Origin: Actinomycetota bacterium | GTDB lineage: Bacteria; Actinomycetota; Geothermincolia; Geothermincolales; RBG-13-55-18 | Reading direction: 5' to 3' | Length of the DNA: 64,000 nt | Assembly: GCA_014360645.1 (NCBI GenBank) | Contig: JACIXD010000001.1 | Span: 237,647 to 301,646, forward strand | Shown here: positions 3,697 through 64,000 of the stretch, in pieces | Numbering within the stretch: position 1 is the stretch's first letter | Layout: each line of letters begins with the position of its first letter | The notes under the pieces: model-generated | Told to the model about the DNA's origin: nothing | Databases searched by the model: none | Seen by the model: only the letters and a program-made list of their open reading frames with translations | Translations under genes and position numbers: made by a program

Positions 3697-3701
3697 CCCC
3701 G

Positions 3702-20554: not shown

Positions 20555-21094
20555 ATGCAGATGATCGTCAAGGGGAAGAACCTGGAGGTCACCGACGCCC
20601 TGCGCGCGTACGCGCAGGAGAAGGTGGGCAAGGTGGAGAAATACCTCGATCGCATCACCAAGACCGAGATCGAGATGAGCGTGGAGAAGAACCCCAAGAT
20701 CCCCGACAACCAGGTGGTGGAGGTCACCATCTTCTCCAGCGGCCCCGTGATCAGGGCAAAGGAGTCCGCCACCGACATGTACCAGGCCATCGACCTGGTG
20801 GCGGGCAAGCTCGAGCGCCAGGCGCGCAAGGTGAAGAAGAAGCTCATAGACCGCTCCCACCACGCGAAGAACCCCCTGAAGGAGATGGCGGTGGAAGAGG
20901 AGGAAGAGCCCGAGCCGGTGATCGTGAAGACCAAGAGCTTCCCGCTCAAGCCCATGACCCCCGAGGAGGCCTGCCTCCAGATGGACCTGGTGGGCCACGA
21001 TTTCTTCGTCTTCGTCAACGCCGAGACGGAGGAGACCAACGTGGTTTATCGAAGAAAGGATGGGAACTACGGCCTGATCGAGCCGGGAGGTTGA
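20555..21094 (+). CDS. hpf: ribosome hibernation promoting factor, long form
   Basis: MQMIVKGKNLEVTDALRAYAQEKVGKVEKYL is a classic HPF/RaiA N-terminus, and the long-form C-terminal domain is present. Preceded by a [16 protein letters not shown]. Confidence 0.85.
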   Translation: MQMIVKGKNLEVTDALRAYAQEKVGKVEKYLDRITKTEIEMSVEKNPKIPDNQVVEVTIFSSGPVIRAKESATDMYQAIDLVAGKLERQARKVKKKLIDRSHHAKNPLKEMAVEEEEEPEPVIVKTKSFPLKPMTPEEACLQMDLVGHDFFVFVNAETEETNVVYRRKDGNYGLIEPGG

Positions 21095-21196
21095 TATGCG
21101 CAAGCTCCTGGACATGGCGCGCCAGGTGCTGGATTACGTCATCAGGCGGGGCGCCACCATGCGCCCTTGAGAGACGGGACGGGTGAGGTCGCTCTC

Positions 21197-22807: not shown

Positions 22808-24165
22808 ACGAGAGGAGCCTTAAGGCCCTGCGCTTTCTCTCCGCCCTGCTCTTCCTGGCGGTGATCGTGGCGTGCGCTCCCTTCGTGAAGTGGGGGGACA
22901 TCGACCCGGCGCGGACCTTCGGGCTCGCCGCCGTGCTGGCCTTTTTCGAGGCCTGGAGGATCCAGTTCCCCTGGGGGAGGCCGCTGCGCCTGGGCATGGC
23001 GGCCATCCTGTGCATCATCGCCATAAGGCCGCTCCCGGAGGCGGTGTTCATATTCCTCCTGGGCAGCATGGTGGGGCGGGCCTTCTCCCGCCTGCAGCGC
23101 GAGGGAGAGGGCGACTTCCTGCACATCGTCCAGCGCACCTACATCGTGGCCTTTGCGGGGCTGGTCTATCGCCTGGTGGCCTTCGCGGGATGGGAGATGA
23201 GCTGGAATCCCTACCCCGCCTATTTCGGCAACTTGCCCGACGGCAGCATCTATCTCACCTATTTCAACCCCGTGGTACTTCACCGCGCCCTGGTCTTCCC
23301 CGCGGCCTTCCTGGCCATGGCGCTGGTCTTCTATCTCGGGGAGGTGATCACCTCCTCGGTGGAGGCGGGGATCCTGCTGGTGGGCAACTGGCGCGTGATC
23401 CTGCCCCAGCACATGCGCCAGACCTTCCCCGCCTACCTCGCCATCACCGGCGCGGGAGCGCTGACCGCCCTCTATTTTCCACGCCTGCCGTGGTTCAACT
23501 TCCTCGTCTTCCTGGTGCCGCTGCTCCTGGTGCGCATGGAGTCCAACCGCGACAAGGAGCTGGACGAGCGCTACTTCCAGACCATGCGCATCATCGGAGA
23601 CGCCTTCGACCTGGCGCGCGGCATGCCGGGGCATTCGGGGAGGGTCAGCAACCTGGCGGCGGAGGTGGCGCGGGAGATGGGCGTCTCCGCCGAGGAGACG
23701 CGCAACATCCGCTACGCCGCCGCCCTGCACGACATCGGGCGCGTAGAGTTCGAGGGCGACGAGGAGGCGCAAGGGCATGCCGAGAGGGGAGCCGAGGTGC
23801 TGGAGGAGGTGCCGCGGCTGCGCCCCATCGCCCACATCGTGCGTCATTCCCATCCCTCCCCAGAGGAGGAAGGCGGGGCGTCGAGGATACCGGTGGGCGC
23901 GAAGATCATCGGGGCGGTGAGCGATTTCGACGTCCTCACCTACCATCCCGAGCGCAAGATGTCGCAGCGGGAGGCCCTGGAGGAGATGGGGCTCGAGCGG
24001 GGCAAACGCTATGATTCCATGGTCCTCCGCACCCTCACCCAGGTCCTGGAGGCCCAGGCGAGGGCGCGCCGGCGCCCGGAGCGTGAGATCAGACAGCGGG
24101 CCAAGGTGCTGGAGGAGGAGGAGCTCAAGGAAAGCCTGGAGGAGATCTTCCGCGAGGAAGAGTAG
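22804..24165 (+). CDS. membrane-anchored HD domain protein, degenerate HD-GYP paralog
   Basis: Same architecture as the upstream gene, with a 4-bp overlap. The HD motif is retained (AALHDIGR) but the GYP motif is absent ([29 protein letters not shown]). Confidence 0.6.
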
Positions 24166-34189: not shown

Positions 34190-34535
34190 TGGTGGAGGCG
34201 GGGGGAGTCGAACCCCCGTCCAGAAATCCGGCCGGGTGGGCTCTACGAGCGTATCCGCCGCGAGGTTTTTCGCCACCGGGTCGCCCGGCGGAGGGCTAGC
34301 CGGCGGCTATCCCGTCAGGGTTTTCCCTCGGCCCTTACGGGAGTGGGGCCTCGGTGAGCCCGCTGCATGACGCCCCTTCCCCGGTCGCGGGCCTCCCGGG
34401 GAGGGACGGGCCGCTTAAGCGGCCAGGGCCAACTCGCTGTCGGCGTCTGTTGGTTTTCCCGCTTGTTGACGAGGCTCGGGTCCCCGGCTCGCTCCCGCGC
34501 CGGCCGCCGATCCCTGTCGAAGCCGTTTCGCCCCC
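34190..34535 (-). ncRNA. ssrA: tmRNA (transfer-messenger RNA, SsrA)
   Basis: The minus strand reads 5'-GGGGGCGAAACGGCUUCGACAGGG...GGACGGGGGUUCGACUCCCCCCGCCUCCACCA-3'. The acceptor stem carries a G3:U wobble (Ala identity), the T-arm is canonical and CCA is encoded. The internal tag ORF is ...GGA AAA CCA ACA GAC GCC GAC AGC GAG UUG GCC CUG GCC GCU UAA, giving (A)GKPTDADSELALAA. smpB is adjacent. Confidence 0.85.
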
Positions 34536-34830: not shown

Positions 34831-35310
34831 TCATTCCCGGCCGCGACCGCCCCGGCCGGCCTCCTTGAGGGTTCGCTCGAGGTCCCGGCGCGCCTCCCGC
34901 TCCATGATGTCCCGGCGGCGGTCGGCCTTGGCCTTGCCCCGCGCCAGCCCCAGCTCCACCTTGATCCTGCCCCTCTCGTTGAGGTAAAGCCTCAAGGGGA
35001 TGAGGGTGTACCCTTTCTCGTTCACCTTGCCCTCCAGCCTGCGCAGCTCTTCTCGATGCATCAACACCTTGCGCGGCCGCAGGGGCTCGTGGTTGAAGGC
35101 ACCGCCGTGGCTGTAGGGGGCGACGTGCATGTTCTCCAGGAAGAGCTCCCCGCCGCTAATCCTGGCGAAGCTGTCGCGCAGGTTGGCCCTCCCCTCGCGA
35201 ATGGACTTCACCTCCGAGCCCAGGAGGGACAGGCCGCCCTCGAACCTCTCCTCTATGTGGTAATCGTGCCTGGCCTTGCGGTTCTCGGCCAGGGTCCTCA
35301 CGCTTCCCAT
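34831..35310 (-). CDS. smpB: SsrA-binding protein SmpB
   Basis: 159 aa with SmpB motifs (ENRKARHDYHIEERFEGGLSLLGSEVKSIREG...LHREELRRL). Confidence 0.85.
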   Translation of the reverse strand: MGSVRTLAENRKARHDYHIEERFEGGLSLLGSEVKSIREGRANLRDSFARISGGELFLENMHVAPYSHGGAFNHEPLRPRKVLMHREELRRLEGKVNEKGYTLIPLRLYLNERGRIKVELGLARGKAKADRRRDIMEREARRDLERTLKEAGRGGRGRE

Positions 35311-36335: not shown

Positions 36336-37964
36336 TCAGCGCTCTCTCGGCTCGCCGGCCAGGCGGCGCGCCACCGCTTCCTTTTCCGTCCGCAGGCGGG
36401 CGCGCAGGCGCTCCAGCCTCCCGGCCTCCTCCTCCCGGACGGGCGCGCTCTCGAGCTTCTCGTCGATGAAGCCCGCGGCACGCATGGCCATGGCCATGAT
36501 GGTCAGCTGGGGGTTCACTCCCAGGGAGGTGGGAAGGACGCTGGCGTCACAGATGAAGAGGTTCTCCACCTCCCAGGTCTCGCAGATGCTCTTCACCACC
36601 GAGGCGTGGGGGTCGCCGCCCATACGGCAGGTGCCCATGGGGTGGTAGGCGCTCAGCCCGTATATGCTCGCACGCCGCAGCCGGGCGCGGGACAGGCGTC
36701 GGAAGTCGCGGGGGCCGCTGAGTTCCTTGAAGCCGTCGATGGGGGTATAGACGCGCCTGGCGCCAGCCGCGAACCATATCTCCGCCATGAGCAGGATGGA
36801 GCGCTTTAGGCGGTCCAGGTCGTCCCGGCCCAGGCTGTACAGGGTGAGGGGCTGGCGTGCCGAAGGTCCCGCCACCACCTTGCCCGTGGAATCGTGCTCG
36901 CTGATCATGGAGCCGTAACTTGCTATGAAGGGGTAATCGCGCATGGTCTCGGCGTGGCGCCTACCGCCCCAAGGGAGGGTGATGGCCATCACCGCCGGTG
37001 GGATGGTAACTCCTTCCAGCATGATCCCCTCGGGAGCGAACTCGTCCACGTAGGTGCTCTGGGGTATGCCCCTGGGGTTCCCCATCGCCTCCGGCATGAG
37101 CGCCAGGGTGGCGCCGCAGGGGTGGATGGAGAGGTTCTTGCCCACCTGGCCCGAGGAGAGGCAGAGGCGGTTGTGTATGAGCATAGAGGGGGTCTGGATG
37201 GCGCCTCCGGCCAGCACCACCACCGAGGCGTGCACCTCCAGGCGCCGTGTCCTCGCGCCCGTGCGAGGGTCGGAAAAACGACCGCGCACCCCCACCGCGC
37301 GGCCGCCGCGCACCAGGATGCGCTCCGCCCGGCAACGGGTATAGACGTCGGCTCCCGCCGCCACGGCGTCGGGGATGAAGGAGACGTTCACGCTCTGCTT
37401 GGCGCCGGAGGGGCAGCCGTAGGCGCAGACCCCGAATCCCTCGCAGTCCTTGGCGTTGCGGGGGAGGAAACCCCCGGAATAGCCGAGCCGGCGGGCGTGC
37501 TCCAGGAAGAGCAGGTTGTTCTTGCCCGCCACCTCGGGGTCGGCGCGTTTCACGAAGAGGTATTCCTCGAGGGCGGCGTAGAGGAGGTTGAGCTCCTCCT
37601 CGCCGATATCCCTCAGGCCGTGCTCCAGGTGCCAGCGCTTGAGGACGTGTCGGGGGATGCGCAGGCAGGTGCCCGAGTTCACGGTGGTGGTCCCTCCCAC
37701 CGTCTTCCCCTGGGGGATGACGATGGCGGGAATCCCCAAGGCCACCGTCTGGCCGGCGTCACGATAGAGGCGGGTGAAGGCGTCGCCGGCGCGGAGATCG
37801 AAGTGTTCGCGGACGAAATGCCCTCCCTCCTCGATTACCACCACGGAACGTCCCGCCTCGGCCAGCTCCTTGGCTATGGGGCCTCCGCCCGCGCCGGAGC
37901 CGATGATCACCACGTCGGCCTCGCGCCTCACGTCCCCGGGCAGGCTCTCGGGCGTGATGATCAT
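36336..37964 (-). CDS. GMC family FAD-dependent oxidoreductase
   Basis: Starts MIITPESLPGDVRREADVVIIGSGAGGG (Rossmann GxGxxG). The C-terminal GMC active-site region is AYHPMGTCRMG. It is the real gene inside the 907-aa ORF-track entry at 36336..39059. Confidence 0.75.
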   Translation of the reverse strand: MIITPESLPGDVRREADVVIIGSGAGGGPIAKELAEAGRSVVVIEEGGHFVREHFDLRAGDAFTRLYRDAGQTVALGIPAIVIPQGKTVGGTTTVNSGTCLRIPRHVLKRWHLEHGLRDIGEEELNLLYAALEEYLFVKRADPEVAGKNNLLFLEHARRLGYSGGFLPRNAKDCEGFGVCAYGCPSGAKQSVNVSFIPDAVAAGADVYTRCRAERILVRGGRAVGVRGRFSDPRTGARTRRLEVHASVVVLAGGAIQTPSMLIHNRLCLSSGQVGKNLSIHPCGATLALMPEAMGNPRGIPQSTYVDEFAPEGIMLEGVTIPPAVMAITLPWGGRRHAETMRDYPFIASYGSMISEHDSTGKVVAGPSARQPLTLYSLGRDDLDRLKRSILLMAEIWFAAGARRVYTPIDGFKELSGPRDFRRLSRARLRRASIYGLSAYHPMGTCRMGGDPHASVVKSICETWEVENLFICDASVLPTSLGVNPQLTIMAMAMRAAGFIDEKLESAPVREEEAGRLERLRARLRTEKEAVARRLAGEPRER

Positions 37965-38368
37965 CGCCGCACCTCCCTGGCCGCGGCCTCCCTGCGCATC
38001 TCGTGGACGTCGAAGCCCAGGCATACCTGCACGTCGTCGCGGTTGTAGTGGGCCATGTAAAGAGGGATGCCCAGCACGGCGGGAATCGCCCCCAGGGCGG
38101 CGACGCGGCTCTCGTAGAGGGAGCTTAGGAAGGCGTCCGCATCCTCCGGAGGAAGGGAGTAGAACGACCTCCCTCTGGCGACCAGACAGAGCGCCTGGAG
38201 CACAAGCACCATGGCGTAGAAGAGGAGACGGAAGGCGGGCGTGCCCGCCTGCAGGAAGGCGAGGGCGAATGTAGTGACCTGGTCGGGGTCCACGGGCGGT
38301 AGCCCCTCCACCTGCTCTATGAACACCGGGGCCAGGCGCCGGATGCGGCGCGCGAAGTACTCCCTCAT
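37961..38368 (-). CDS. hypothetical small protein, translationally coupled to the GMC oxidoreductase
   Basis: 135 aa with a hydrophobic core segment. Its stop overlaps the oxidoreductase start (ATGA). It could be a small accessory subunit; no motif recognised. Confidence 0.4.
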   Translation of the reverse strand: MREYFARRIRRLAPVFIEQVEGLPPVDPDQVTTFALAFLQAGTPAFRLLFYAMVLVLQALCLVARGRSFYSLPPEDADAFLSSLYESRVAALGAIPAVLGIPLYMAHYNRDDVQVCLGFDVHEMRREAAAREVRR

Positions 38369-38666
38369 CTCTCTCCCCCTCCTCTTGGAGCTGGACCCGC
38401 TCGCGACCGGCCCTGCGCCGCCCCGACGGCGGGCCTTTCACATCAAACCGGCTCGATGACTCCCTCGATGAACATTCTATGCCCGGCTTGTTTGGGCCGT
38501 CAACGCGCGCCGCCGCGCCGCATGCCCTCCCGTCGCGCGGAACATCGGCGTGCCGCCGTCGTGCTAGAATAGGGCTTTGCGTGGAGCAGTCGGCGCCCGG
38601 AGGCGGCCGGACGCGGACCGGCCGCAGGCCCGCGGCGCGGACCCGGAAGGAAAGGAGTGCGGGGCC

Positions 38667-39485
38667 TTGAACGATGCGCCCATCGGCATCTTCGACTCGG
38701 GCCTGGGTGGTCTCACGGTGATGAAGGCGGTGATGAGACGCCTCCCCCGCGAGTCCATCATCTACTTCGGCGACAGCGCGCGCGGTCCCTACGGCCCCCG
38801 GGATATCGCCGAGATACGCGGTTTCGCGGTGGAGCTGGCCAGATACCTCGAGGAGCTGGGGGTGAAGATCGTGGTCATCGCGTGCAATTCGGCCACCTCG
38901 GCGGGGCTCCTGGAGGCGCAGCGCGCCTGCAGGGTGCCGGTGTTGGGGGTGGTGGAGCCGGGGGCCAGGGGAGCGGTCCAGGCCACCCTCAACCGGCGCA
39001 TCGGGGTGATAGGCACCAGGGCCACGGTGCGCAGCCGTTCCTATCCCCGTGCCATCCACGCCCTCGACGCGGGGGCCAGGGTGTTCTCACGGGCATGTCC
39101 GACCCTGGTGGATCTCGTGGAGCGCGGCGAGGTGGAGGGGGCGCGGGTGGAGGAGGAGGTACGGAGGTATCTCCGCCCCCTGCTCGAGCGCCAGGTGGAC
39201 ACCATCGTGCTGGGCTGCACCCACTACCCCCTGCTGCGGGGGGTCATCTCCGCGGTGGCGGGGGAGGGCGTGAACCTCATCAGCTCCGACCGGGAGGTGG
39301 CCAGGGAGGTGGAGGAGAACCTGGTGCGCAGGGGGTTCCTGCGCGACCACGGCGAGCCTCCCGTCCACCGCTTCCTGTTCACCGGGGACGTGGACCGGGC
39401 CAGGGAGCTGGGCCGCCTCTTTTTGGGTCCGGAGGTGGTGGAGGTGGAGAAGGTCGAGCTGCCCCTGCGGGGGGTGGGGAGATGA
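38667..39485 (+). CDS. murI: glutamate racemase
   Basis: TTG start 9 nt after AAGGAG. MurI motifs are present: PIGIFDSGLGGLTV, IACNSA and GCTHYP. Confidence 0.85.
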   Translation: MNDAPIGIFDSGLGGLTVMKAVMRRLPRESIIYFGDSARGPYGPRDIAEIRGFAVELARYLEELGVKIVVIACNSATSAGLLEAQRACRVPVLGVVEPGARGAVQATLNRRIGVIGTRATVRSRSYPRAIHALDAGARVFSRACPTLVDLVERGEVEGARVEEEVRRYLRPLLERQVDTIVLGCTHYPLLRGVISAVAGEGVNLISSDREVAREVEENLVRRGFLRDHGEPPVHRFLFTGDVDRARELGRLFLGPEVVEVEKVELPLRGVGR

Positions 39486-45955: not shown

Positions 45956-46040
45956 GCGAGAGTGGCGGAACCGGCAGACGCGCCGGACTTAGGATCCGGT
46001 GGTGAAAACCGTGGGGGTTCGAATCCCCCCTCTCGCACCA
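45956..46040 (+). tRNA. tRNA-Leu(UAG)
   Basis: GCGAGAGUGGCGGAACCGGCAGACGCGCCGGACUUAGGAUCCGGUGGUGAAAACCGUGGGGGUUCGAAUCCCCCCUCUCGCACCA. It has a long variable arm and CCA is encoded. Confidence 0.85.
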
Positions 46041-46046
46041 GGAGCT

Positions 46047-46076
46047 CCCGCACCCGCACGGGGGTGGGATTTTTTT
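46047..46076 (+). terminator. intrinsic terminator after tRNA-Leu
   Basis: GC-rich hairpin cccgcacccgcacgggggtggg followed by a run of seven T residues. Confidence 0.5.
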
Positions 46077-46120
46077 CGAGCGTTTCGCGTGCAGGAAGGT
46101 TACGGGAAGGAGCGCGTAAG

Positions 46121-47554
46121 GTGGCCGTGAGAGCTGAGATGGAGGAAGTCGAGAAGAACAGGGTGCGCGTGAAGGTGGAGGTCCCCGCGGAGGAGATAAG
46201 CAGGGCCGTGGACGGCGCCTTCCGCGCCATCGCGCGGGAGGTGTTCATCCCCGGGTTCCGCAAGGGGAAGGTGCCGCGCCGGGTTCTGCAGGCTCGCCTG
46301 GGCATGGAGCCCATATACGACGAGGTCAAGCAGTCGAAGCTGCCGGAATACTACGCGGAGGCCCTCAAGCAGCTCGACCTGGAGCCCATTGACGAGCCCG
46401 AGATAGACGTGGACGAGATCGAGATAGAGGACGGCAAGCCCCTGGCCTTCGAGGCCGTGGTGGAGGTCAAGCCCCGGGTCGAGCTGGACCACTACAAGGG
46501 CGTGGAGGTGGAGCGGCCCGAGGAGGAGGTCGCGGACGAGGAGGTCGAGCGCGTCCTCGACGGCATGCGCGAGCGCTTCGCGCAACTGGAGGTGGCGTCG
46601 GGGAAGACCCTGGCGGAGGGCGATTACGCCCTCATCGATTTCAACGGCACGGTGAACGGCGTGGAATTCGAGGGGGGCAGCGCCAGGGATTTCATGCTGG
46701 AGATAGGGACGGAGAACATCTGGCCGGAGTTCAACCAGGAGCTGGCGGGAAAGCGCAAGGGGGACATCCTGGACATCAGGGTGAAGATGCCCGAACAGTT
46801 CCCCGACCAGGAGCTGGCGGGGAAGATCGCCTCCTTCAAGGTCATCGTCAAGGAGGTCAAGGTCAAGAAGCTCCCCGAGGCAAACGACGATTTCGCCAGG
46901 GAGGCGAGCAGGTTCGACACCATCGCGGAGCTCAGGGAGGACATCCGCTCCCGGCTGGAGGAGGCCAAGCGCTTGCAGGCCAAGGAGTCGGTACGCAGGC
47001 AGGCGCTGGAGAAGCTGGCCGAGGGGCTGGAGGTGGACATCCCGGAGAAGATGGTGGACGACTACGTGCACCAGCGGCGCCACGAGCTGGAGGCGCGCCT
47101 GGCCTCCCGCGGCATAGCCCTGGACAGCTACCTCAAGGCGGTGGATTACACCGAGCAGCGCATGGAGGAGGAGTTCCAGGAGGAGGCCCGCAGGCTGATC
47201 CGCAACGAGCTGGTGCTGGACGCGGTCATCCGCGCCGAGGGCATCGAGGTGAGCGACGAGGAGCTGGAGCAGGAGATCGCGCGTCGGGCGGAGATGTTCG
47301 CCGTGAAGCCTGAGGAGTTCCGCCGCGTGGTCAAGGAGCGCGGCGACCTGGAGGAGCTCAGGGAGAGCCTGCGGCGGGAGAAGGCCCTTGACCTCCTGGG
47401 CGACCACGCCGTCTTCGCCGGCGAGGGCGAGAAGGAGGAGGAGCCCGCGGCGCGCGGCGAGGAGGAATCCGGCGCGGAAGCCGCGGAGCCGGAGGCCGTG
47501 GAGGAGGAATCCGGCGCGGAGGCCGCGGAGCTGGAGAGCGGAGCTCAGGATTGA
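46121..47554 (+). CDS. tig: trigger factor
   Basis: A GTG at 46121 (after GGGAAGGAG) or the ATG at 46139 gives MEEVEKNRVRVKVEVP...GFRKGKVP, the trigger-factor N-terminal domain. The ORF-track start at 45962 lies inside tRNA-Leu. The C-terminus has an acidic, repetitive extension. Confidence 0.8.
   Translation: MAVRAEMEEVEKNRVRVKVEVPAEEISRAVDGAFRAIAREVFIPGFRKGKVPRRVLQARLGMEPIYDEVKQSKLPEYYAEALKQLDLEPIDEPEIDVDEIEIEDGKPLAFEAVVEVKPRVELDHYKGVEVERPEEEVADEEVERVLDGMRERFAQLEVASGKTLAEGDYALIDFNGTVNGVEFEGGSARDFMLEIGTENIWPEFNQELAGKRKGDILDIRVKMPEQFPDQELAGKIASFKVIVKEVKVKKLPEANDDFAREASRFDTIAELREDIRSRLEEAKRLQAKESVRRQALEKLAEGLEVDIPEKMVDDYVHQRRHELEARLASRGIALDSYLKAVDYTEQRMEEEFQEEARRLIRNELVLDAVIRAEGIEVSDEELEQEIARRAEMFAVKPEEFRRVVKERGDLEELRESLRREKALDLLGDHAVFAGEGEKEEEPAARGEEESGAEAAEPEAVEEESGAEAAELESGAQD
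47459..47538 (+). repeat. 36-bp imperfect direct repeat (42-bp period) encoding the acidic C-terminal tail of trigger factor
   Basis: gaggaggaatccggcgcggaagccgcggagccggag occurs twice, 42 bp apart, encoding EEESGAEAAEPEAV / EEESGAEAAELE. Confidence 0.6.
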
Positions 47555-50077: not shown

Positions 50078-50280
50078 CCATTCCCGCTCTGGCAGGTGGC
50101 GTCCTCTCCCCATCAGGCGTCATGGCGAGCCCTTGCATGACATCGTGGCGATGAGCTGTCTGCTCAGGAACGGCGATCTCCGTGCGCCCGCCTCGTCGCA
50201 TTGAGCCTGACTGCCCATGACTCCAGCCAAACGGCAAGCCCTCTTCGGCATGCCCCCGGCGGCCCCCCGTTACCGCGTTA

Positions 50281-50309
50281 TTGACCGCGTTGTAAACAAA
50301 TATTATATT
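50281..50309 (+). promoter_or_regulatory. sigma70-type promoter (TTGACC-17 nt-TATATT) for the large surface protein gene
   Basis: A near-consensus -35 and -10 with 17-nt spacing sits in a local AT-rich patch about 110 nt upstream of the ATG at 50420. Confidence 0.45.
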
Positions 50310-50419
50310 TGATATATTAAATGCATATCCACCGATAAGGGAAAGCCGGCAGCAGCCCTAAGGGCTCGTGGCACCCATGCGCCGGGATGTTCTCAGGGCT
50401 AGGGATTTTTGGGGGGGAA

Positions 50420-53400
50420 ATGAAAAGATCAAGAGCAACAAGGCGCTTTGGCGTGCCCGCGTTCGTCCTGGCCATGGGGCTGCTTATGATGACCGTGCCC
50501 TTCGCGGCGGCGGCCCCCTCTCCCGGAGGGGCGGCGGCCATCGGGGCCGGGAAAGGCTTCTACGGTGATGTCACCGTGCCCGGCGAGGTCTGGGAGCCCT
50601 GCGCTCCGGCCGGCATATCCGCCCTGGATGTGGAGCAGATCGAGGCCGCCGGCACGAGCACGGCATACGCGGTCATCGACAATACCCCGGGCAAGGTCAT
50701 CAAGACCACCGACTATGGAGATAACTGGCAGATCATCGATCTTGCCGCGGGCTTCGGCTGGACGGAGCATATATCGGTGGTGGACGCGCAGACGGTCTGG
50801 GTGGGCAGCGTGCATAACCGGGAAGAGGACGTGGCCATCACCACCGACGGCGGCGGCAGCTGGGTATATGCTTACAGCCAGCCCAACCAGGCGGACCTGG
50901 AAGCCACCAGCTCCTTGCATGCCTGGGCCGCCGGCAACTTCTATGGTGGTGGGGGCTGTTTCATCAGGGAGACCTTCAACGGGGGCGCGGACTGGAGCCA
51001 AGTGTACGGAAACGCGGGGAGCTGCTACGATGTCGAGTCCACCGACTCGAACAACATCTGGGCGGTGGGCAGCATCTCCTTCAAAGGATGGATCGCGCAC
51101 TGGGACGGCTCCAGCTGGAACTTCATGACCCCCGATGGCCTGGGCACCCAGGAGCTCAGGGGCTGCTGGACGCTGGACTCCAACAACGCCTGGGCGGTGG
51201 GGGGAAACAAGATCATAAGGACCGCGGATGGAGGGGACAACTGGGAGGTTTACACAGCGCCGGACGGCGTCGATGGCCTCAAGGACATCTGCGCCCTGAG
51301 CCCCGTCATGGCCTTCGCCGTGGGCTCGTACGGAGCCATCATCAAGACCACCGATGGCGGCGAGAGCTGGACCCGCATGTACGTCCCCACCGGCGAGCAC
51401 CTGAAGAGCGTCTACGTCGTGGACCCCACCCACGCCTGGGCGGTGGGGACGAAGGGGACCGTCCTGCGCCTGGTGCAGGCCAACACCCGGGAGGGCAGCG
51501 ATATCACCGTGGGCCTGGGGGGCGGGGATTCCATCACCTTCTCCAGCGTGACCGCGGCCGGGAACACCATCAAGTCGCCGACAGAAGAACCCACCGGCGA
51601 GGAGTTCGACTACCACTTACCCGTGAGATGGTATGACATCTCCACCAGCGCGTCCTTTTCGGGGACGGCCGAGGTCAGGTTGTCCTATGGTGACGATTAC
51701 GGGTTTGACGAGGAAGGGTACCGCCTGCTGCACAAGACCGGCGGCGGATGGGAGGACGTCACCACCGGCGTGGACACGGAGAACAATGTGATTTCCGGCC
51801 GGGTCACCTCGCTGTCGGACTTCGCGATCATCTACCCCCTTCCCAAGATCAAGAGCATCACCCCCGATTGGGGCATGCGGGGGAATACCTACGACGTCGA
51901 CATCAATGGCTACGGTTTTTGGGAAAAGGTGGGGGAGAAACCTGACGTGAAGTTGAAGCTCGGAGAGACGACCATCGACGCCGCCGATGTCGTGGTGCAC
52001 GACCTCTACCACATCAGCTGCAGGTTCCACCTGCCGGAGGGCGCCACACTGGATTTCTGGGAAGTGTATGTCAAGGATCCAAGCCCCGACGATTACGAGA
52101 ACACTTTTTGGGGTTTCAGGATCGTGGAGAACCCCCCGCCGCCTCCCACCATCGCTTCCATAACGCCCAGCTACGGGGCCAGGGGGACCGCCGTGAACAT
52201 CAGCGACCTGGCCGGCACCGGTTTCTGGTACACACCCGCCGTCAAACCAACTGTCAAGCTCACAAGGAGCGGCCAGCCGGATATCTCGGCCAAAAGCGTC
52301 GTCGTCTACAGCGGCACCAAGATAAAATGCACATTCGACATACCCCCAGACGCTTACTCGGGGCCCTGGGACGTCACGGTGGTGAACCCCGACGGCCAGA
52401 GCGGGACCAAGGCCGGGTGCTTCATGGTCACCGGGGGCCTGCCGGCGCCGACCATCGACAGCGTCACCCCGGACTGGGGCGTGCTCGGTACCACCGTCAC
52501 GGTCACCATATCTGGAACCGGCTTTTGGGGATCTCCGTTTATCGCGATCCTGGGGTCCGACCCGGGCCAGAACGCCATCTGGGCCACCAATATCGCGGTG
52601 CAAAGCGACACCACCATCACCTGCGATCTTAATCTCATCGCCAACCGCAAGCCGGGCACCTACGACATGCTGCTCAGGAACCAGGATAACCAGGAAGTGA
52701 CCAAGCCAGGGGCTTTTGCCATCAACTCGGCCGCGCCCGCCATAGCTTCCCTCTCACCCTCGAACGGACATACGGGCACGGAGGTGACCATCACCGGCAC
52801 CGCCTTCGGCGCCTCCCGCTGGGACTCCTACGTCTCTTTCGGGGGCGTGCAGGCCACCGAGTACACCTCCTGGTCGGCCACGCTTATCAGGGCCAAGGTG
52901 CCGGCGGGCGCGACGGGCACGGTTGACGTCAAGGTGATCACCGATTGGGGGACCTCCAACGGGGTGGCCTTCACCGTGTTCGGCAACCCGCCTCCCACCG
53001 TGACCTCCATCACCCCCAACAGCGGGGCGCAGGGGAGCAGCGTGGCGGTGACCGACCTCGTGGGATCGGGCTTCTACGGCACCCTCACGGTGAAGCTCAA
53101 GAGGACGGGCCAGCCCGACATCACCGCTACCGGGGTCACGGCGCAGAGCCCCACCAGGATAACCTGCAACCTGCCCATCCCCTCAGGAGCGGCCACGGGA
53201 GCCTGGGACGTGGTGGTCAAGAACTCCCAAAACAAGGAAGCCACCCTGGTCGGAGGCTTCACCGTGACCTCCGGCGGGAGCGGGGGCAACACCCCCGCGG
53301 GCTCGGACGTGGAGGTGGACCTGGGGGGCGGGGTGGAAGCCGCCTTCTCCGGGGTTAGCGGGGGCGGCAACACCACCGCCACGCCCCAGCCCGACCCCAG

Positions 53401-54265
53401 CGTGGCAAACTACCATATCCTGGGAGGAAGCTGCTACGACATCACCACCACCGCCACCTACACCGGCACCATCCTGGTCACCCTCCCGTACGACGAGGCC
53501 GCCCTCACCGTGCCGGAGAAGAGCCTGCGCATGCTGCACCGGGAGGGCGGCGAGTGGGTCGACGTGACCAGGAGCGTGGATACCGCGCAGGACCGCATCA
53601 CCGGCGAGGTCACCTCCCTCTCCCCCTTCGCCATCGGTTGGAAGGCGGCGAACGTCTGGTACCTCGCCGAGGGCTGCACCGAGGGGGGCATGAAGACCTG
53701 GGTGCTGGTGCAGAACCCCAACGACGGCCCGGTGAAGGTGGACCTCATATTCATGACCTCCGGCGGCAAGGTGGACGGGCCCCAGGACTTCGAGATACCC
53801 GGCAACTCCCGCCACTCCTTCAACCTCGGGGAGCTGGTCACGGACTGGAACGTCTCCACCAAGGTGGTGAGCGAGGGAGGGGACGTCATCTGCGAGCGCG
53901 CCATGTACGGGAACGGCGACACCTGGGCCCACGACTCCATCGGGGTGACCGCGCCCGCCCCCGTCTGGTACCTCGCCGAGGGCTGCACCGAGGGGGGCAT
54001 GAAGACCTGGGTGCTGGTGCAGAACCCCAACGACGGCCCGGTGAAGGTGGACCTCACCTTCATGACCTCCGGCGGCAAGGTGGACGGGCCCCAGGACTTC
54101 GAGATACCCGGCAACTCCCGCCACTCCTTCAACCTCGGGGAGCTGGTCACGGACTGGAACGTCTCCACCAAGGTGGTGAGCGAGGGAGGGGACGTCATCT
54201 GCGAGCGCGCCATGTACGGGAACGGCGACACCTGGGCCCACGACTCGGTGGGATATACGCCTTGA
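50420..54265 (+). CDS. large secreted cell-surface protein: signal peptide, BNR/Asp-box beta-propeller-like region, five IPT/TIG Ig-like domains, and a tandemly duplicated ~103-aa C-terminal domain
   Basis: Signal peptide MKRSRATRRFGVPAFVLAMGLLMMTVPFAAA. BNR-like repeats (DYGDNWQ, TTDGGGSW, NGGADWS, TADGGDNW, TTDGGESW). Five IPT/TIG-like units (e.g. IASLSPSNGHTGTEVTITGTAFG, ITSITPNSGAQGSSVAVTDLVGSGF). Two near-identical C-terminal repeats beginning WYLAEGCTEGGMKTWVLVQNPNDGPVKVDL. Confidence 0.7.
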   Translation: MKRSRATRRFGVPAFVLAMGLLMMTVPFAAAAPSPGGAAAIGAGKGFYGDVTVPGEVWEPCAPAGISALDVEQIEAAGTSTAYAVIDNTPGKVIKTTDYGDNWQIIDLAAGFGWTEHISVVDAQTVWVGSVHNREEDVAITTDGGGSWVYAYSQPNQADLEATSSLHAWAAGNFYGGGGCFIRETFNGGADWSQVYGNAGSCYDVESTDSNNIWAVGSISFKGWIAHWDGSSWNFMTPDGLGTQELRGCWTLDSNNAWAVGGNKIIRTADGGDNWEVYTAPDGVDGLKDICALSPVMAFAVGSYGAIIKTTDGGESWTRMYVPTGEHLKSVYVVDPTHAWAVGTKGTVLRLVQANTREGSDITVGLGGGDSITFSSVTAAGNTIKSPTEEPTGEEFDYHLPVRWYDISTSASFSGTAEVRLSYGDDYGFDEEGYRLLHKTGGGWEDVTTGVDTENNVISGRVTSLSDFAIIYPLPKIKSITPDWGMRGNTYDVDINGYGFWEKVGEKPDVKLKLGETTIDAADVVVHDLYHISCRFHLPEGATLDFWEVYVKDPSPDDYENTFWGFRIVENPPPPPTIASITPSYGARGTAVNISDLAGTGFWYTPAVKPTVKLTRSGQPDISAKSVVVYSGTKIKCTFDIPPDAYSGPWDVTVVNPDGQSGTKAGCFMVTGGLPAPTIDSVTPDWGVLGTTVTVTISGTGFWGSPFIAILGSDPGQNAIWATNIAVQSDTTITCDLNLIANRKPGTYDMLLRNQDNQEVTKPGAFAINSAAPAIASLSPSNGHTGTEVTITGTAFGASRWDSYVSFGGVQATEYTSWSATLIRAKVPAGATGTVDVKVITDWGTSNGVAFTVFGNPPPTVTSITPNSGAQGSSVAVTDLVGSGFYGTLTVKLKRTGQPDITATGVTAQSPTRITCNLPIPSGAATGAWDVVVKNSQNKEATLVGGFTVTSGGSGGNTPAGSDVEVDLGGGVEAAFSGVSGGGNTTATPQPDPSVANYHILGGSCYDITTTATYTGTILVTLPYDEAALTVPEKSLRMLHREGGEWVDVTRSVDTAQDRITGEVTSLSPFAIGWKAANVWYLAEGCTEGGMKTWVLVQNPNDGPVKVDLIFMTSGGKVDGPQDFEIPGNSRHSFNLGELVTDWNVSTKVVSEGGDVICERAMYGNGDTWAHDSIGVTAPAPVWYLAEGCTEGGMKTWVLVQNPNDGPVKVDLTFMTSGGKVDGPQDFEIPGNSRHSFNLGELVTDWNVSTKVVSEGGDVICERAMYGNGDTWAHDSVGYTP
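53654..54250 (+). repeat. 309-bp tandem duplication (2 copies, ~99% identical) inside the surface-protein gene
   Basis: Copy 1 starts at 53654 and copy 2 at 53963. They differ at only about 2 nt over ~290 bp and encode duplicated ~103-aa domains. Confidence 0.9.
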
Positions 54266-54658: not shown

Positions 54659-54951
54659 ACGAGACCCCTTCCGCTATGTACAGGATATGCCGTTGCGAAG
54701 AGGATATCCTAACCCGATGTCACCATCAAGGGGCCAACCTGGCCTTTATCCGGTATCTCAAGGCCCTCAGCCAGGCGAGGAGAACAATGGAACCCAGCAT
54801 AATAATGCTGCCGTCCGCCATCGCCCCTCCTCCCTCCATCGCTTGCGAGAGTCCTCTCACGCCTGATTCTGTTCCCGCCGTCGGTGATGACAAAGGGCGG
54901 CTTCAATATATAATTATGTAATTACTTCTGTGCCGGGCTCGCCTCGCAGGT

Positions 54952-54980
54952 TTGACAAAGGCGGGGCCGCTTTTTAGCAT
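54952..54980 (+). promoter_or_regulatory. candidate sigma70-type promoter upstream of valS (TTGACA-17-TAGCAT)
   Basis: A -35 TTGACA lies in an AT-rich segment, with a weak -10; valS starts at 55080. Confidence 0.3.
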
Positions 54981-59922: not shown

Positions 59923-60975
<1,053 letters not shown>

Positions 60976-60992
60976 ACCGGGGCCGGACGATC

Positions 60993-61856
60993 ATGATCGA
61001 GAGACATAACCGCAGGCAGCGCGCGCTGGTGATCACCCTCGTCGTCATCTGTGTCCTCCTGGTCACCGTCTATTCCCGGGAGAGCGGAGACGGCATCTTC
61101 CACCGCCTGCAGCGCCTCTCCCTGGACATCGTCTCCCCCCTGCAGAAGGGCATGAGCAAGGTGCTGAGCCCGGTGAAGGACGGCATATCCTTCGTGTTGG
61201 ACATGGGGAGGGCCAGGGGGGAGCGCGACCGCCTGCGGGAAGAGGTCCGGGACCTGCAGGAGAGGGTGGACGAACTGGAGGCCCTGAGGCTCGAGAACCG
61301 GGAGCTCAGGAGCATGATCACGGTAAAGGAGAACAACCCCGAGTTCGAGTTCCTGGTGGTGGACGTCATCGGGGCCAACCCGGACATCTGGGAGCAGACC
61401 ATCCAGATAGGGGCGGGCTATTCCGACGGCCTGCGGGAATACATGGCCGTCCTGAGCGAGGACGGCAGCCTGGCGGGGAGGATAATCCTCTGCACCTCCG
61501 AGGCGTCGGTGGTGCAGTTGATCACCGACGAGAAGAGCTCCGTGGGCGCCATGCTGCAGACCAACGGCGAGCTGGGAGTGCTGCGGGGAGAGGGCAGGAG
61601 CGGGGTGCGGCTGGAGCTGCTCAACCAGGACGCGGAGGTGAGGACGGGGGACCTGGTGGTCACCTCCGGGCTGGGGGGAACCTGTCCGGCGGGGCTCCCC
61701 GTCGGAACCATAACCGAGATCAGCGAGCGCAGGGCGGACCTCTCCGTAGGGATCATCATCGAGCCCCGCGCCAGGCTTACCCGCCTGAACCGGGTGATGG
61801 TGGTGGTCTCGCCGCTGCCGCGTACCGAGCCCCTCGAGGCGGCAAGGGGAGAGTGA
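60993..61856 (+). CDS. mreC: rod shape-determining protein MreC
   Basis: N-terminal TM helix, a coiled coil (RLREEVRDLQERVDELEALRLENRELR) and a beta-rich C-terminal domain. The internal ATG is preferred over the ORF-track start at 60918, which overlaps mreB. Confidence 0.8.
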   Translation: MIERHNRRQRALVITLVVICVLLVTVYSRESGDGIFHRLQRLSLDIVSPLQKGMSKVLSPVKDGISFVLDMGRARGERDRLREEVRDLQERVDELEALRLENRELRSMITVKENNPEFEFLVVDVIGANPDIWEQTIQIGAGYSDGLREYMAVLSEDGSLAGRIILCTSEASVVQLITDEKSSVGAMLQTNGELGVLRGEGRSGVRLELLNQDAEVRTGDLVVTSGLGGTCPAGLPVGTITEISERRADLSVGIIIEPRARLTRLNRVMVVVSPLPRTEPLEAARGE

Positions 61857-61863
61857 GGATGTC

Positions 61864-62364
61864 GTGCACCGACGGTTGATCTTCTTCGTGGTGCTGGTTC
61901 TGGCGCTGCTGGTGCAGCTCACCGTGGCGCCGGAGATCGCCATCGGGACGGTGAGGCCGGACGTGCTCCTGGTGGTCACGGTGTGCTGGGCTCTTTTCGA
62001 GGGCCCGGGACAGGGGGCGTTGTTCGGTTTCTGGGGCGGGCTGCTGGAGGACGTATTCTCCACCGCGGTGCTCGGCGTCGGCGCCTTTGCCAAGACCGTC
62101 ATCGGTTATTTCGGCGGCGAGCTCCGCCAGCGCATCATCTCCAAGTCCGTGGCCTGGCCCATGGTCATCGTGTTCTTCGCCTCCTTCCTCCACGAGCTGG
62201 TGAAGTTCGCCACCTGGGCCATGGTGGGCTTGGAGGACCGCCCGCCTTTCAGCTTCGGGATCATCGCCGGCCTCGCCCTCTACAACGCCCTGATCACCCT
62301 GGCCGTCTATCCGGTGATCGGGCGTTTCGCCCTGGGCGAGGAGAGGTCCCTCATGTTCCAGTGA
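61864..62364 (+). CDS. mreD: rod shape-determining protein MreD
   Basis: 166 aa with a GTG start and about 5 TM helices. It sits between mreC and the pbp2 gene. Confidence 0.65.
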   Translation: MHRRLIFFVVLVLALLVQLTVAPEIAIGTVRPDVLLVVTVCWALFEGPGQGALFGFWGGLLEDVFSTAVLGVGAFAKTVIGYFGGELRQRIISKSVAWPMVIVFFASFLHELVKFATWAMVGLEDRPPFSFGIIAGLALYNALITLAVYPVIGRFALGEERSLMFQ

Positions 62365-62389
62365 TCGCCGGGAGGGAGGCAGAAAGACC

Positions 62390-64000
62390 ATGCCCGCCAA
62401 TCCGCAGCAGCAGGGAGCGATGGTACACCGCTTCACCCTCTTCATCATGTTCCTGGGGGCGCTGGTGGCGGTGCTGGTGGTGCGGCTGTGGTTCCTGCAG
62501 GTGGTGCAGGGAGAGCATTACAAAGTGATGGCCGAGGGGAACCGCATCCGCGAGGTTCCCCTGGAGGCCAACCGTGGCAACATCCTCGACCGCAACAACC
62601 GGGAGATGGTCATCAACCGCCAGGCCCTTTCCATCTTCGTGCTCCCCACGGAGTTCGAGAAGCTCGAGGACAAGGAAGGGGAGGTGGCACGCCTGGCGGC
62701 GCTGCTGGACATGGAGCCGGAAGAGATCCTCGGGAAGCTGCAGGGGAACGAGGTACAGCCCCACAAGCCGGTGCTCATCAAGAAGGACGTGGACCCGGAG
62801 GTGTACTTCTTCATCGCGGAGAGGCAGGTGGACTTCCCCTGGGTGGAGGCGGACGAGATGCCGGTGCGCGAATACTACGAGGGCGAGGAGACCTTGGCCG
62901 CGCACGTGCTCGGCTACCTGGGCGAGATCAGCAAGGAGCAGCTCCAGGTGCTCAGGGATAAGGGATACAAGGCGGGGGATATCGTGGGCACCTCGGGCGT
63001 GGAGGCCTATTACGAGGACACCCTGCGCGGCATCGACGGCAAGCGTATCGTGGAGGTGGACGCCTCGGGAAACCCCCTGCGCGTGCTGGGGGAGGAGGAG
63101 CGCCAGCCCGGGAAGACGGTCATCCTCACCCTGGACAAGGAGCTGCAGAAAGCGGTGGAGGCCGCCCTGCGCGAGGGCATGGAGAAGGCGCGCACCTACT
63201 TCGACCGCGAGCGGGGCAGGAATTACTCCGCCCCCGCGGGGGCGGCGGTGGTCCTCGACCCGCGCAACGGCGAGATCCTTGCCATGGCCAGCGAGCCCAC
63301 CTTCAACCTGGAGAACTTCGTGGGGGGCATCGACGAGAAGGAGTGGGCGATCCTCAACGACCCCGCCAACAACTATCCCCTCAACAACCGCGCCATCGTG
63401 GGGCAGTACCCTCCCGGCTCCACCTTCAAGGTGATCACGGCCATGGCGGCGCTGCAGGACCTGGGGGTGACGGCATATTCGCCCTTCTATTGCAACCACG
63501 TCTTCAACCGGGGCGAGTTCGCGCAGTTCCCCAAGACCTGCTGGGGGAAGCACGGGGCCGTCGACTTCATCCACGCCATCGTGGAGTCGTGCGACGTGGT
63601 CTTCTACGACCTCGGCTATTCCATATACGAGAACCGCGAGCGGGAGGGATGGGTGACGAAGCTGCAGGACTACGCCAGGCTGGCCGGGCTAGGGTCCAAG
63701 ACCGGCGTGGACCTGCCCAACGAGTTCGAGGGACGGGTGCCCACGCCGCAGTGGAAGTGGGAGTTCAACCAGGGCAACCCGGACTACCAGCGCTGGTATC
63801 CCGGGGACACCGTCAACCTGGCGGTGGGACAGGGAGACGTCCTGGTGACTCCCCTGCAGCTCGCCAACGTGTACGCGGCCATCGCCAACGGCGGTCCCTT
63901 CTACCGTCCCCACGTGGGCAAGGAGATCATCACCTGGCAGGGAGAGACGGTGGAGGTCAACCAGCCCCAGATGATCGGCGACATCACCAGCGCCGACAAC
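62390..64000 (+). CDS. mrdA: penicillin-binding protein 2 (peptidoglycan D,D-transpeptidase MrdA), partial; 3' end outside the window
   Basis: RBS GGGAGGGAGG. N-terminal TM helix, PBP dimerisation domain and transpeptidase motif GSTFK. The reading frame is still open at the window end. Confidence 0.85.
   Translation, partial: MPANPQQQGAMVHRFTLFIMFLGALVAVLVVRLWFLQVVQGEHYKVMAEGNRIREVPLEANRGNILDRNNREMVINRQALSIFVLPTEFEKLEDKEGEVARLAALLDMEPEEILGKLQGNEVQPHKPVLIKKDVDPEVYFFIAERQVDFPWVEADEMPVREYYEGEETLAAHVLGYLGEISKEQLQVLRDKGYKAGDIVGTSGVEAYYEDTLRGIDGKRIVEVDASGNPLRVLGEEERQPGKTVILTLDKELQKAVEAALREGMEKARTYFDRERGRNYSAPAGAAVVLDPRNGEILAMASEPTFNLENFVGGIDEKEWAILNDPANNYPLNNRAIVGQYPPGSTFKVITAMAALQDLGVTAYSPFYCNHVFNRGEFAQFPKTCWGKHGAVDFIHAIVESCDVVFYDLGYSIYENREREGWVTKLQDYARLAGLGSKTGVDLPNEFEGRVPTPQWKWEFNQGNPDYQRWYPGDTVNLAVGQGDVLVTPLQLANVYAAIANGGPFYRPHVGKEIITWQGETVEVNQPQMIGDITSADN

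Follow-up and report, generated by a model that had tools for sequence, protein, structure and literature searches.

A clpX-linked propeller/TIG protein of uncultured Actinomycetota ends in two ASRAH modules, a probable non-covalent wall anchor

We analysed a 64-kb stretch of DNA (the window) from an uncultured member of the Actinomycetota and assigned the C-terminal repeat of its largest gene product. The two near-identical 103-aa modules at the end of this protein are ASRAH domains, with the ASRT/TM1070 fold and of the type described by Pfam DUF5719, and they probably act as a non-covalent cell-wall anchor. A preliminary description of this DNA had reported a duplicated C-terminal domain that it could not assign. 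The duplication is real, with 285 nt at 99% identity and a spacing of 309 nt, and the domain can now be named. From the N-terminus, the protein consists of a signal peptide, a Ycf48/BNR propeller, a GSD domain, five IPT/TIG domains, a second GSD domain, and the ASRAH pair (Table 1). GSD is our name for an unnamed domain of approximately 120 aa that is present twice in the protein. Overall, the domain architecture is new, while its component parts are known.

Table 1 Features of the 1281-aa gene and its product in the window.
Feature	Position	Strand	Remark
Sigma-70-like promoter match TTGACC-17-TATATT	50281..50309	+	inside 70-nt AT-rich patch
CDS	50420..54265	+	1281 aa + stop codon; ATG 50387 is an alternative start (+11 residues)
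Signal peptide, residues 1-32	50420..50515	+	basic n-region, hydrophobic core, AAA|PSP end
Seven-bladed Ycf48/BNR-type beta-propeller, residues ~50-352	50567..51475	+	five Asp-boxes
GSD copy 1, residues 353-475	51476..51844	+	ZU5-like beta-sandwich; fold inferred from copy 2
Five IPT/TIG Ig-like domains	51839..53272	+	residues 474-572, 573-673, 674-770, 771-856, 857-951
GSD copy 2, residues 955-1076	53282..53647	+	ZU5/GAIN/FIIND-like fold; T-S-L-S-P loop between last two strands
ASRAH module 1, residues 1077-1178	53648..53953	+	profile, structure model
ASRAH module 2, residues 1179-1281	53954..54262	+	reaches the protein's C-terminus

The open reading frame (50387..54265, forward strand) encodes 1292 aa when counted from its first ATG, and a start at ATG 50420 gives a normal signal peptide (MKRSRATRRF...). 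The large ORF described previously is real, but its product from this start is one residue shorter than the 1282 aa given. It is indeed the largest gene of the window, followed by genes of 914, 910, and 908 aa. The predicted product is acidic (pI 4.46) and has a mass of approximately 132 kDa. The GC3 value of 0.87 indicates that the composition of the gene is native. It is flanked by clpX and valS, and in three other assemblies an orthologue with approximately 50% identity immediately follows tig-clpP-clpX. Judged from this gene order, the clpX-linked propeller/TIG gene is a conserved core gene. By their annotation, the relatives belong to Candidatus Geothermincolia and allied lineages.

The near-consensus promoter noted earlier was found upstream of the gene. 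Only seven sites with at least 10 of 12 matches to the sigma-70 consensus occur in the 64 kb on both strands, and this is one of them. The AT-rich setting holds for the patch at 50271-50340 (70 nt, 33% GC, compared with approximately 65% elsewhere), but the gene itself is not AT-rich. The leader between the promoter match and the gene is approximately 100 nt. Two orthologous loci (L003 and L004) each have one promoter-like site in the spacer between clpX and the gene, with leaders of approximately 400 nt, and the promoter sequence is not conserved between the window locus and these loci. These data support a predicted promoter of its own, strong-looking by its sequence, for the 1281-aa gene.

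The hydrophobic core of the signal peptide (residues 10-30), whose presence had been recognized before, is the sole hydrophobic stretch of the protein. Its twin arginine is not kept in the orthologues, and export is likely to follow the Sec route. Domain-model and motif searches bear out the absence of SLH, LPXTG, and other classical anchors: the 1281-aa protein contains no lipobox (the first Cys is residue 61), no LPXTG, PEP, or PGF motif, no C-terminal hydrophobic tail, and no T9SS CTD or Por_Secre_tail domain. The assignment of the product as a large secreted protein of the cell-surface type is supported.

Several lines of evidence identify the C-terminal modules. Pfam DUF5719 (PF18986) matches the whole protein with 39.8 bits (gathering cut-off 26.2), and one isolated module scores 24.2 bits against the same cut-off. 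The top PDB matches of a single-module profile are ASRT (2ii7, E 4.7e-6) and TM1070 (1nc7, E 1.4e-5). The ASRT family itself (PF07100) has a direct match in 5 of 62 relatives. In the AF2 model of the dyad (pLDDT 97.6, pTM 0.91), each module forms an eight-stranded beta-sandwich, superposable on TM1070 and ASRT, and the pair is predicted with high confidence to fold as one compact unit. The hallmarks of the superfamily are a Trp that starts strand 1 and a near-invariant Asn that ends strand 2 (PMC2739507). Both are present in the window modules, as the W of WYLAEG and the N of QNP, and the latter is invariant across an alignment of 46 modules. The ligand residues of the ASRT-like family, a His and a Cys on strand 2, are not retained in the window modules; therefore, the ligand cannot be transferred. 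The ASRAH superfamily is non-enzymatic and predicted to bind sugars (PMC2739507). The preliminary description had named an enzymatic identity of the repeat as evidence against anchoring, and the outcome of this check favours anchoring.

The module profile matches 8701 representative clusters. Exactly four modules are present in 135 of the top 148 representatives, and in 120 of the 148 the last module stops no more than 10 residues before the C-terminus. Dyads also occur, as in the window protein and its orthologue P0002. More than 60 different secreted heads precede the tail, including subtilases, C39 and C1 peptidases, phosphatases, nucleotidases, RCC1, beta-helix, and propeller domains, and the 62 ASRAH-tailed proteins examined contain 62 Pfam families in all, DUF5719 included. 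Among the best 80 matches in species genomes, one MAG has at least 16 ASRAH loci and others have 4-7. Modules 50-56% identical to those of the window are fused to Amidase_3, Peptidase_M23, and a Csd4/M99-like carboxypeptidase. The terminal position of the dyads and tetrads, the diversity of the heads, the number of loci in one genome, and the fusions to peptidoglycan hydrolases lead us to read the tail as a probable anchor. The amidase fusions agree with the amidase-linked family described previously (PMC2739507). The same distribution could also stem from a module for an environmental polysaccharide or for oligomerisation. That the window protein has two modules, when four is the usual number, counts against the anchor reading.

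Among the closest known systems is the secreted amidase-linked ASRAH family, which was described as invariably fused to an amidase and found mainly in Chloroflexi (De Souza, Iyer and Aravind 2009, PMC2739507). It shares with the window protein the TM1070/ASRT-type module, the hallmark Trp and Asn, the extracellular tandem dyads or tetrads, and the predicted binding of wall sugars, and relatives of the window modules are likewise fused to N-acetylmuramoyl-L-alanine amidase. In contrast, the window module is the tail of a propeller/TIG protein in deep-branching Actinomycetota and is found behind more than 60 other types of head. The DUF5719 actinobacterial ASRAH lipoprotein also has two modules (PMC2739507) and a Pfam score above the cut-off links it to the window protein. 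However, the latter matches only positions 54-132 of the 319 in the profile, lacks the lipobox Cys and the family-specific N- and C-terminal extensions, and is encoded next to clpX and valS rather than beside WhiB, glycosyltransferase, and inactive-zincin genes. SLH, CWB2, LysM, SH3b, and GW anchors resemble the ASRAH tail in that they occur in tandem at one terminus of numerous unrelated exoproteins, with many paralogues per genome, and are shared with peptidoglycan hydrolases. The ASRAH fold is unrelated to them, and its wall binding is predicted. In Bacteroidota, Ignavibacteriales, and similar groups, Ycf48-propeller relatives carry a homologous head and an attachment module in the same C-terminal slot, but theirs is the T9SS sorting domain (Por_Secre_tail) and the type of envelope differs.

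The head had been described as sialidase or Ycf48-like, and only the second term applies. The isolated propeller domain matches PF14870 (29.9 bits, cut-off 27) and the PDB Ycf48 entry 8am5 (E 6e-9). It contains seven xWAVG blade strands and Asp-boxes at residues 96, 141, 185, 268, and 310. A sialidase (GH33) identity was rejected because the 1281-aa protein contains no FRIP motif ([FYW]R[IVL]P) and no sialidase family is among its Pfam matches. Ycf48/HCF136 and COG4447-type BNR propellers share the seven blades, the Asp-boxes, and the sequence matches to Ycf48. Unlike Ycf48, the window head is extracellular, part of a 1281-aa modular protein, and from a non-phototrophic lineage; it is not a photosystem assembly factor. 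The five IPT/TIG domains are confirmed by a Pfam TIG match (PF01833, E 4.7e-25) and by an iterated HMM that detected all five copies (domain E 8e-15 to 4.5e-34). Short Pro-rich linkers connect them, and NCBIfam CoaZ_rpt_PGGG matches four stretches of the protein. The GSD pair flanking this array is a repeat that the preliminary description overlooked. Its copies are 46% identical to each other, and no Pfam or NCBIfam model matches them. The fold is ZU5/GAIN/FIIND-like, with ankyrin ZU5 as the closest structural match, but no ZU5, GAIN, or FIIND chain appeared in a GSD profile search of the PDB even at E values up to 10. GSD also precedes an LPXTG anchor in another protein (P0390), which, like the T9SS sorting domain in the C-terminal slot of the propeller relatives, speaks for an anchoring role of the ASRAH tail.

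If the ASRAH pair were instead a carbohydrate-binding module for an external substrate or surface, such as a polysaccharide of plants, algae, or biofilms, the protein would be released and act as a soluble or matrix-bound binder. The predicted sugar binding of the superfamily (PMC2739507) and Agarase_CBM-like matches in some ASRAH-tailed relatives fit this explanation. We consider it improbable: many of the heads are enzymes whose substrates are not glycans (subtilases, C39 and C1 peptidases, 5'-nucleotidases, metallophosphatases, and a beta-lactamase-like domain), in its clearest functional fusions the module is joined to enzymes that hydrolyse the cell's own peptidoglycan, and its strict use as tetrads or dyads close to the terminus differs from the usual use of CBMs. 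The preliminary description had proposed a candidate S-layer protein or glycoprotein substrate, a plausible acceptor for the glycan made by the locus in the 5' part of the window. The large size, acidity, Ig-rich composition, and secretion of the protein, the rare promoter with its leader of approximately 100 nt, the promoter-like sites in two orthologous loci, the conserved position beside clpX, the plausible wall-binding tail, and Pro/Thr-rich interdomain linkers that could take O-glycans are all compatible with a major surface lattice protein. However, dozens of other proteins in each genome carry the ASRAH tail, which therefore does not single out this one, a propeller borne on an Ig stalk resembles an adhesin or binding protein more than a lattice former, and SLH, CWB2, or other known S-layer anchor or lattice domains have no Pfam or NCBIfam match in the protein. 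The glycan locus (approximately 1-12.4 kb of the window) lies 38 kb upstream, behind housekeeping genes that include ahcY, mtnA, hpf, secA, prfB, ftsEX, smpB, rph, trkH, tig, clpP, and clpX. Among the genes of the locus that were scanned, none matched a family of protein-glycosylating transferases, and two large ORFs of the locus have no Pfam match. S-layer status and glycosylation are not supported by this analysis, and we regard a lattice protein as unlikely. Should the gene and the locus be connected at all, it is equally plausible that the C-terminal modules bind a wall glycan as their ligand and that this glycan does not decorate the protein.

Two further alternatives concern the structure of the product. 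The two-copy tail might result from misassembly, with a tandem repeat collapsed or looped and the real gene having one or four modules. The near identity of the copies in DNA, an N-gap exactly at the tail in the closest public assembly, two orthologous contigs that end exactly there, a 213-aa fragment with a single copy, and the prevalence of tetrads among relatives are consistent with this, and assembly could under-count near-identical copies. There is nevertheless little likelihood of such an error, since P0002 (approximately 51% identity, independent assembly) has exactly two mutually identical copies, a MAG with contigs of up to 482 kb contains both four identical modules (L026) and near-identical pairs (L022 and L044), and the window copies differ at one internal residue and at their ends. 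Both GSD domains might also cleave themselves like GAIN, FIIND, PIDD, and Nup98, leaving fragments held non-covalently so that the head or stalk could be shed. The conserved T-S-L-S-P turn lies between the last two strands, where these families are cleaved; its Ser is conserved in 14 of 16 sequences, and 13 of 16 have a His 28 residues upstream. ZU5 domains in bacterial surface proteins were noted earlier as likely autopeptidases (PMC3482391). The likeness of GSD to ZU5, GAIN, FIIND, and Nup98 beta-sandwiches is confined to the fold and the place of this turn; there is no detectable sequence relationship to them (including ZU5 and GAIN in Pfam and the PDB). Of the canonical H-[FL]-[ST] or S-F-S cleavage motif, GSD shows S-L-S in the right turn before the last strand but no His at P2. 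GSD also lacks the CxH motif cited in PMC3482391, the Ser is replaced by Gly in the two most distant members, and ankyrin ZU5 is non-cleaving. We consider self-cleavage possible but unlikely.

We propose a model in which the protein would be exported by a Sec-type route and displayed on the cell surface of these uncultured Actinomycetota. The propeller would serve as a distal, non-catalytic binding head and the Ig-like array as a stalk, and the ASRAH pair would keep the protein on the wall through non-covalent binding to a wall glycan, either peptidoglycan or a wall-associated polymer. The homologues of solved structure, TM1070 and ASRT, form tetramers. Because of this, and because most relatives have tetrads, the dyad may pair with a second chain into a four-module unit.

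To our knowledge, the actinobacterial classes concerned have no cultured members, and the titles and abstracts of the papers found to name Geothermincolia gave no hint of work on the envelope. The ASRAH assignment removes the domain of unknown identity from the window, and a tie of the gene to the upstream glycan locus is unsupported by this analysis. More tentatively, ASRAH dyads and tetrads may constitute a general non-covalent wall-anchoring system of deep-branching uncultured Actinomycetota (Geothermincolia and allies), with the clpX-linked protein as a conserved, strongly expressed member. If the tail is a wall anchor, the in silico prediction of sugar binding made in 2009 would become a testable statement of cell biology, and tagged ASRAH modules would offer a handle for labelling or capturing these cells. 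A single profile would then suffice to enumerate the surface proteins of any genome of this kind, thousands of proteins in public data. If the anchoring system is general, ASRAH modules would be a functional counterpart of SLH or CWB2 modules and would define the surface proteome of these lineages.

The surface-protein gene is the largest in the window and lies in a row of housekeeping genes (trkH, tig, clpP, clpX, the surface-protein gene, a small convergent membrane ORF, valS, folC, ndk, mreBCD, and PBP2). Its GC3 of 0.87 is typical of native genes in this window of approximately 65% GC, and codon-position composition gave no competing coding-like frame at the gene. Translation from the ATG at 50420 yields 1281 amino acids with a normal signal peptide (MKRSRATRRF, a hydrophobic core, and AAA/PSP). 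The RATRRF segment is weakly twin-arginine-like, but Tat export was rejected because the RR pair is not conserved among orthologues. The 343-nt spacer following clpX contains a promoter match; counting both strands of the 64-kb window, only seven sites, this one among them, come as close to the consensus. A conserved promoter sequence was rejected, as the spacer is identical only in a 99% identical relative and cannot be aligned with that of more distant orthologues, although the latter have promoter-like sites of their own. A structured leader or riboswitch was also rejected; no Rfam family was found near the gene or its leader of approximately 100 nt, and the fold energy equals that of shuffled sequences (z = -0.01). 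Promoter-like sequences (ATGACA-16-TATAAT, with 11 of 12 matches, and TTGACA-17-TAGCAT) are also present just 5' of valS.

Several other features of the window were recorded (see the table). The longest trigger-factor ORF call runs into a tRNA-Leu at its 5' end, so the real tig start must lie further downstream; a related assembly annotates trigger factor at 477 aa, not 531. The rod-shape operon (mreB, mreC, mreD, and PBP2) implies that the wall grows laterally in this lineage of actinobacteria. A raiA RNA motif (RF03072, 177.6 bits) stands directly 5' of an hpf/raiA-type ribosome hibernation gene, two HD_5 (HD-GYP-like) domain proteins are encoded side by side, and the tmRNA (tag ADSELALAA) adjoins smpB. 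In the 908-aa GMC oxidoreductase, approximately 380 aa at the N-terminus form an extension without a match, and the gene has an unusual codon-position GC pattern (0.74, 0.55, 0.77). The Fic-domain gene (GC3 0.63), located between native housekeeping genes for adenosylhomocysteinase and an IF-2B/MtnA-family protein, is probably a foreign insertion.

Coordinates of the surface protein, its surroundings, and duplicated modules in relatives
Feature	Position	Strand	Remark
Long ORF	50387..54265	+	one long ORF in the region
Promoter match, TTGACC-17-TATATT	50281-50309		within a 70-nt patch of 33% GC
Signal peptide	residues 1-32		sole hydrophobic stretch of the protein
Beta-propeller	residues ~50-352		five Asp-boxes, seven xWAVG blade strands
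GSD, two copies	residues 353-475 and 955-1076		46% identical to each other
Five IPT/TIG domains	residues 474-951		
Two C-terminal modules	residues 1077-1178 and 1179-1281		DNA 99% identical over 285 nt
Promoter-like sequences 5' of valS	54887-54980	+	
Two ORFs of the glycan locus	1873-3696, 3702-5243	-	~510 and 610 aa
Fic-domain gene	13994-15079	+	
raiA RNA motif	20140-20368	+	
Hibernation gene	20519-21094	+	
HD_5 genes	21167-24165	+	
tmRNA, smpB	34190-34535, 34831-35310	-	
GMC oxidoreductase gene	36336-39059	-	
tRNA-Leu	45956-46040	+	
Longest trigger-factor ORF call	45962-47554		
mreBCD-PBP2	59935-64000	+	
Relative's locus L026	4785-6824		amidase protein, four identical ASRAH modules
Relative's locus L022	2508-6275		pair of identical or nearly identical ASRAH modules
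Relative's locus L044	3171-6221		pair of identical or nearly identical ASRAH modules

The surface protein is a new architecture built from known kinds of domains. The preliminary description of a signal peptide, a propeller, five TIG domains, a duplicated tail, and no known anchor proved accurate, but it missed the pair of GSD domains (our name for a domain of approximately 120 residues) that flank the TIG array. The isolated propeller domain scored 29.9 bits against PF14870 (cut-off 27) and is matched by the Ycf48 structure 8am5 at E 6e-9; the sialidase FRIP motif was not found in it. GSD has no match among Pfam, NCBIfam, and PDB sequences. The mature protein has a mass of 131.6 kDa and a pI of 4.46, and LPXTG, a lipobox, PEP and PGF motifs, and a C-terminal hydrophobic tail are all absent from it. 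No further copy of the C-terminal module or GSD was found elsewhere in the window.

In the C-terminal module we recognise an ASRAH domain. Its Pfam family is DUF5719, matched at 39.8 bits (cut-off 26.2) over profile positions 54-132 of 319; the searchable literature yielded nothing on this family. When 46 diverse single modules were combined into a profile, its best PDB sequences were ASRT (E 4.7e-6) and TM1070 (E 1.4e-5). The three share an aligned W-x-[IL]-A-E-G start, and Pfam ASRT (PF07100) matches some relatives directly. From 120 homologues, AlphaFold2 modelled the dyad (two modules in tandem) with very high confidence (pLDDT 97.6, pTM 0.91). De Souza, Iyer and Aravind defined the ASRAH superfamily in 2009, predicted sugar binding, and gave a Trp and an Asn as its hallmarks (PMC2739507); we found the term in one relevant paper only. 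The window module has both hallmark residues and carries substitutions at the ligand positions of the ASRT-like family; Glu, Arg, Glu-Arg, Tyr, and Asn residues are invariant in the module. Three families were distinguished: solo cytoplasmic proteins; tetrads (four modules in tandem) that are secreted in Chloroflexi and fused to a muramoyl-alanine amidase; and an actinobacterial lipoprotein that carries dyads and has a link to WhiB and a glycosyltransferase (PMC2739507). Identity with that lipoprotein was rejected, because the window protein has no lipobox, no flanking extensions, and different neighbours, and shares with it the module alone. A disulfide in the module was also rejected, since the Cys pair (AEGC...VICER) co-occurs weakly in 994 modules (odds ratio 2.3), where Cys paired with Ala is common.

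A search of 1.84 billion representative proteins with the module profile gave 8701 matches at E <= 1e-3. Among the best 148 of these, 135 have exactly four modules and six have eight, and the last module ends within 10 residues of the C-terminus in 120. Across 62 module-bearing proteins, 62 different Pfam families were found in all, DUF5719 included, and the heads include a virginiamycin-lyase-like propeller, TIG, Ycf48, subtilases, C39-like peptidases, metallophosphatases, 5'-nucleotidases, RCC1, and a beta-helix. The 80 best loci in species-representative genomes all belong to uncultured Actinomycetota, with Candidatus Geothermincolia, Geothermincola, Solincola, Anoxymicrobiaceae (whose placement inside Geothermincolia was checked), and Acidimicrobiales named at lower ranks, and most of the encoded proteins have a signal-peptide-like start. 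Among these 80 loci, 16 are in one MAG and 4-7 in several others. The heads in ten proteins of the 16-locus MAG include a beta-lactamase-like domain, YncE-type propellers, a papain-like peptidase with TIG, RCC1, and InlB B-repeats. In a minority of proteins, the tetrad directly follows the signal peptide, and a peptidoglycan hydrolase (Amidase_3, Peptidase_M23, or a Csd4/M99-like carboxypeptidase) makes up the C-terminal portion; the modules of these fusions are 50-56% identical to those of the window. In propeller-head relatives from Bacteroidota and Ignavibacteriales, a T9SS sorting domain occupies the C-terminal slot held here by ASRAH.

GCA_030018255.1 has a 99% identical copy of the gene with the same neighbours, in which an N-gap interrupts the tail. 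Orthologues with approximately 50% identity follow tig-clpP-clpX in GCA_013178005.1 and GCA_014360655.1, and both contigs end within the tail. Because all three interruptions fall there, the module copy number may be under-assembled. Homogenisation between modules nevertheless looks like a real family trait, because an independent orthologue (P0002) has two copies identical to each other and a MAG whose contigs reach several hundred kb has near-identical neighbouring modules within single genes. Such identity points to frequent intragenic conversion, or else to recent duplication, within the family.

The AlphaFold2 model of GSD copy 2 is confident (pLDDT 96.9), with a ZU5/GAIN/FIIND-like fold. 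In several families of this type, self-cleavage occurs at the turn that precedes the last strand. The corresponding turn of GSD is a conserved T-S-L-S-P, whose Ser is found in 14 of 16 sequences; 13 of the 16 have a His 28 residues upstream. However, GSD lacks the canonical H-[FL]-[ST] motif, no sequence-level link to self-cleaving families was found in Pfam or PDB, and the best structural match is a non-cleaving domain, making self-cleavage very unlikely. ZU5 domains have been noted before in bacterial surface proteins (PMC3482391). A homologue search for GSD returned five matches only. In a 242-aa metagenomic protein (P0390), GSD lies behind an FN3 domain and directly before an LPXTG sortase anchor. 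Since LPXTG follows GSD in another organism, GSD therefore combines with different anchor types and tends to adjoin whichever anchor is used.

We propose that the ASRAH pair is probably a non-covalent wall anchor, because the modules occur in tandem at one end of many unrelated exoproteins, have many paralogues per genome, and are shared with enzymes acting on the cell's own wall. The wall-retention modules SLH, CWB2, and LysM have the same four-feature signature. The five TIG domains would then form a stalk and the propeller a distal binding head. Most relatives carry tetrads and TM1070 forms a tetramer (PMC2739507), so two chains bearing one dyad each may function together as a dimer. An S-layer protein would keep the same anatomy, but the tail is common to dozens of other proteins and does not single this one out; this role is unlikely. 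The anatomy would equally suit a substrate-directed CBM, but heads that are proteases, phosphatases, and nucleotidases are a poor fit for that role, which is quite unlikely.

The preliminary view of a surface protein with a plausible anchor thus stands, while its suggestion of S-layer or glycoprotein status is unsupported. That suggestion named the protein as a plausible acceptor for the glycan of the 5' locus (approximately 1-12.4 kb), which encodes GT4 and GT2 transferases, nucleotide-sugar enzymes, and two large ORFs without a Pfam match even at E 0.05. The locus and the surface-protein gene are about 38 kb apart, with unrelated housekeeping genes in between, and the glycan-locus genes scanned had no match to an oligosaccharyltransferase or protein mannosyltransferase family. 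The glycosyltransferase genes of the first 8 kb (window 1-8000) look like an acquired island, with a GC3 of 0.62-0.78 against approximately 0.9 elsewhere.

No description of the ASRAH tail as a lineage-wide means of surface attachment was found in the searchable literature. Judging from the sequence comparisons, the tail appears to be a general surface-attachment module across this whole uncultured lineage, and its use at the family level is a more interesting point than the single protein.
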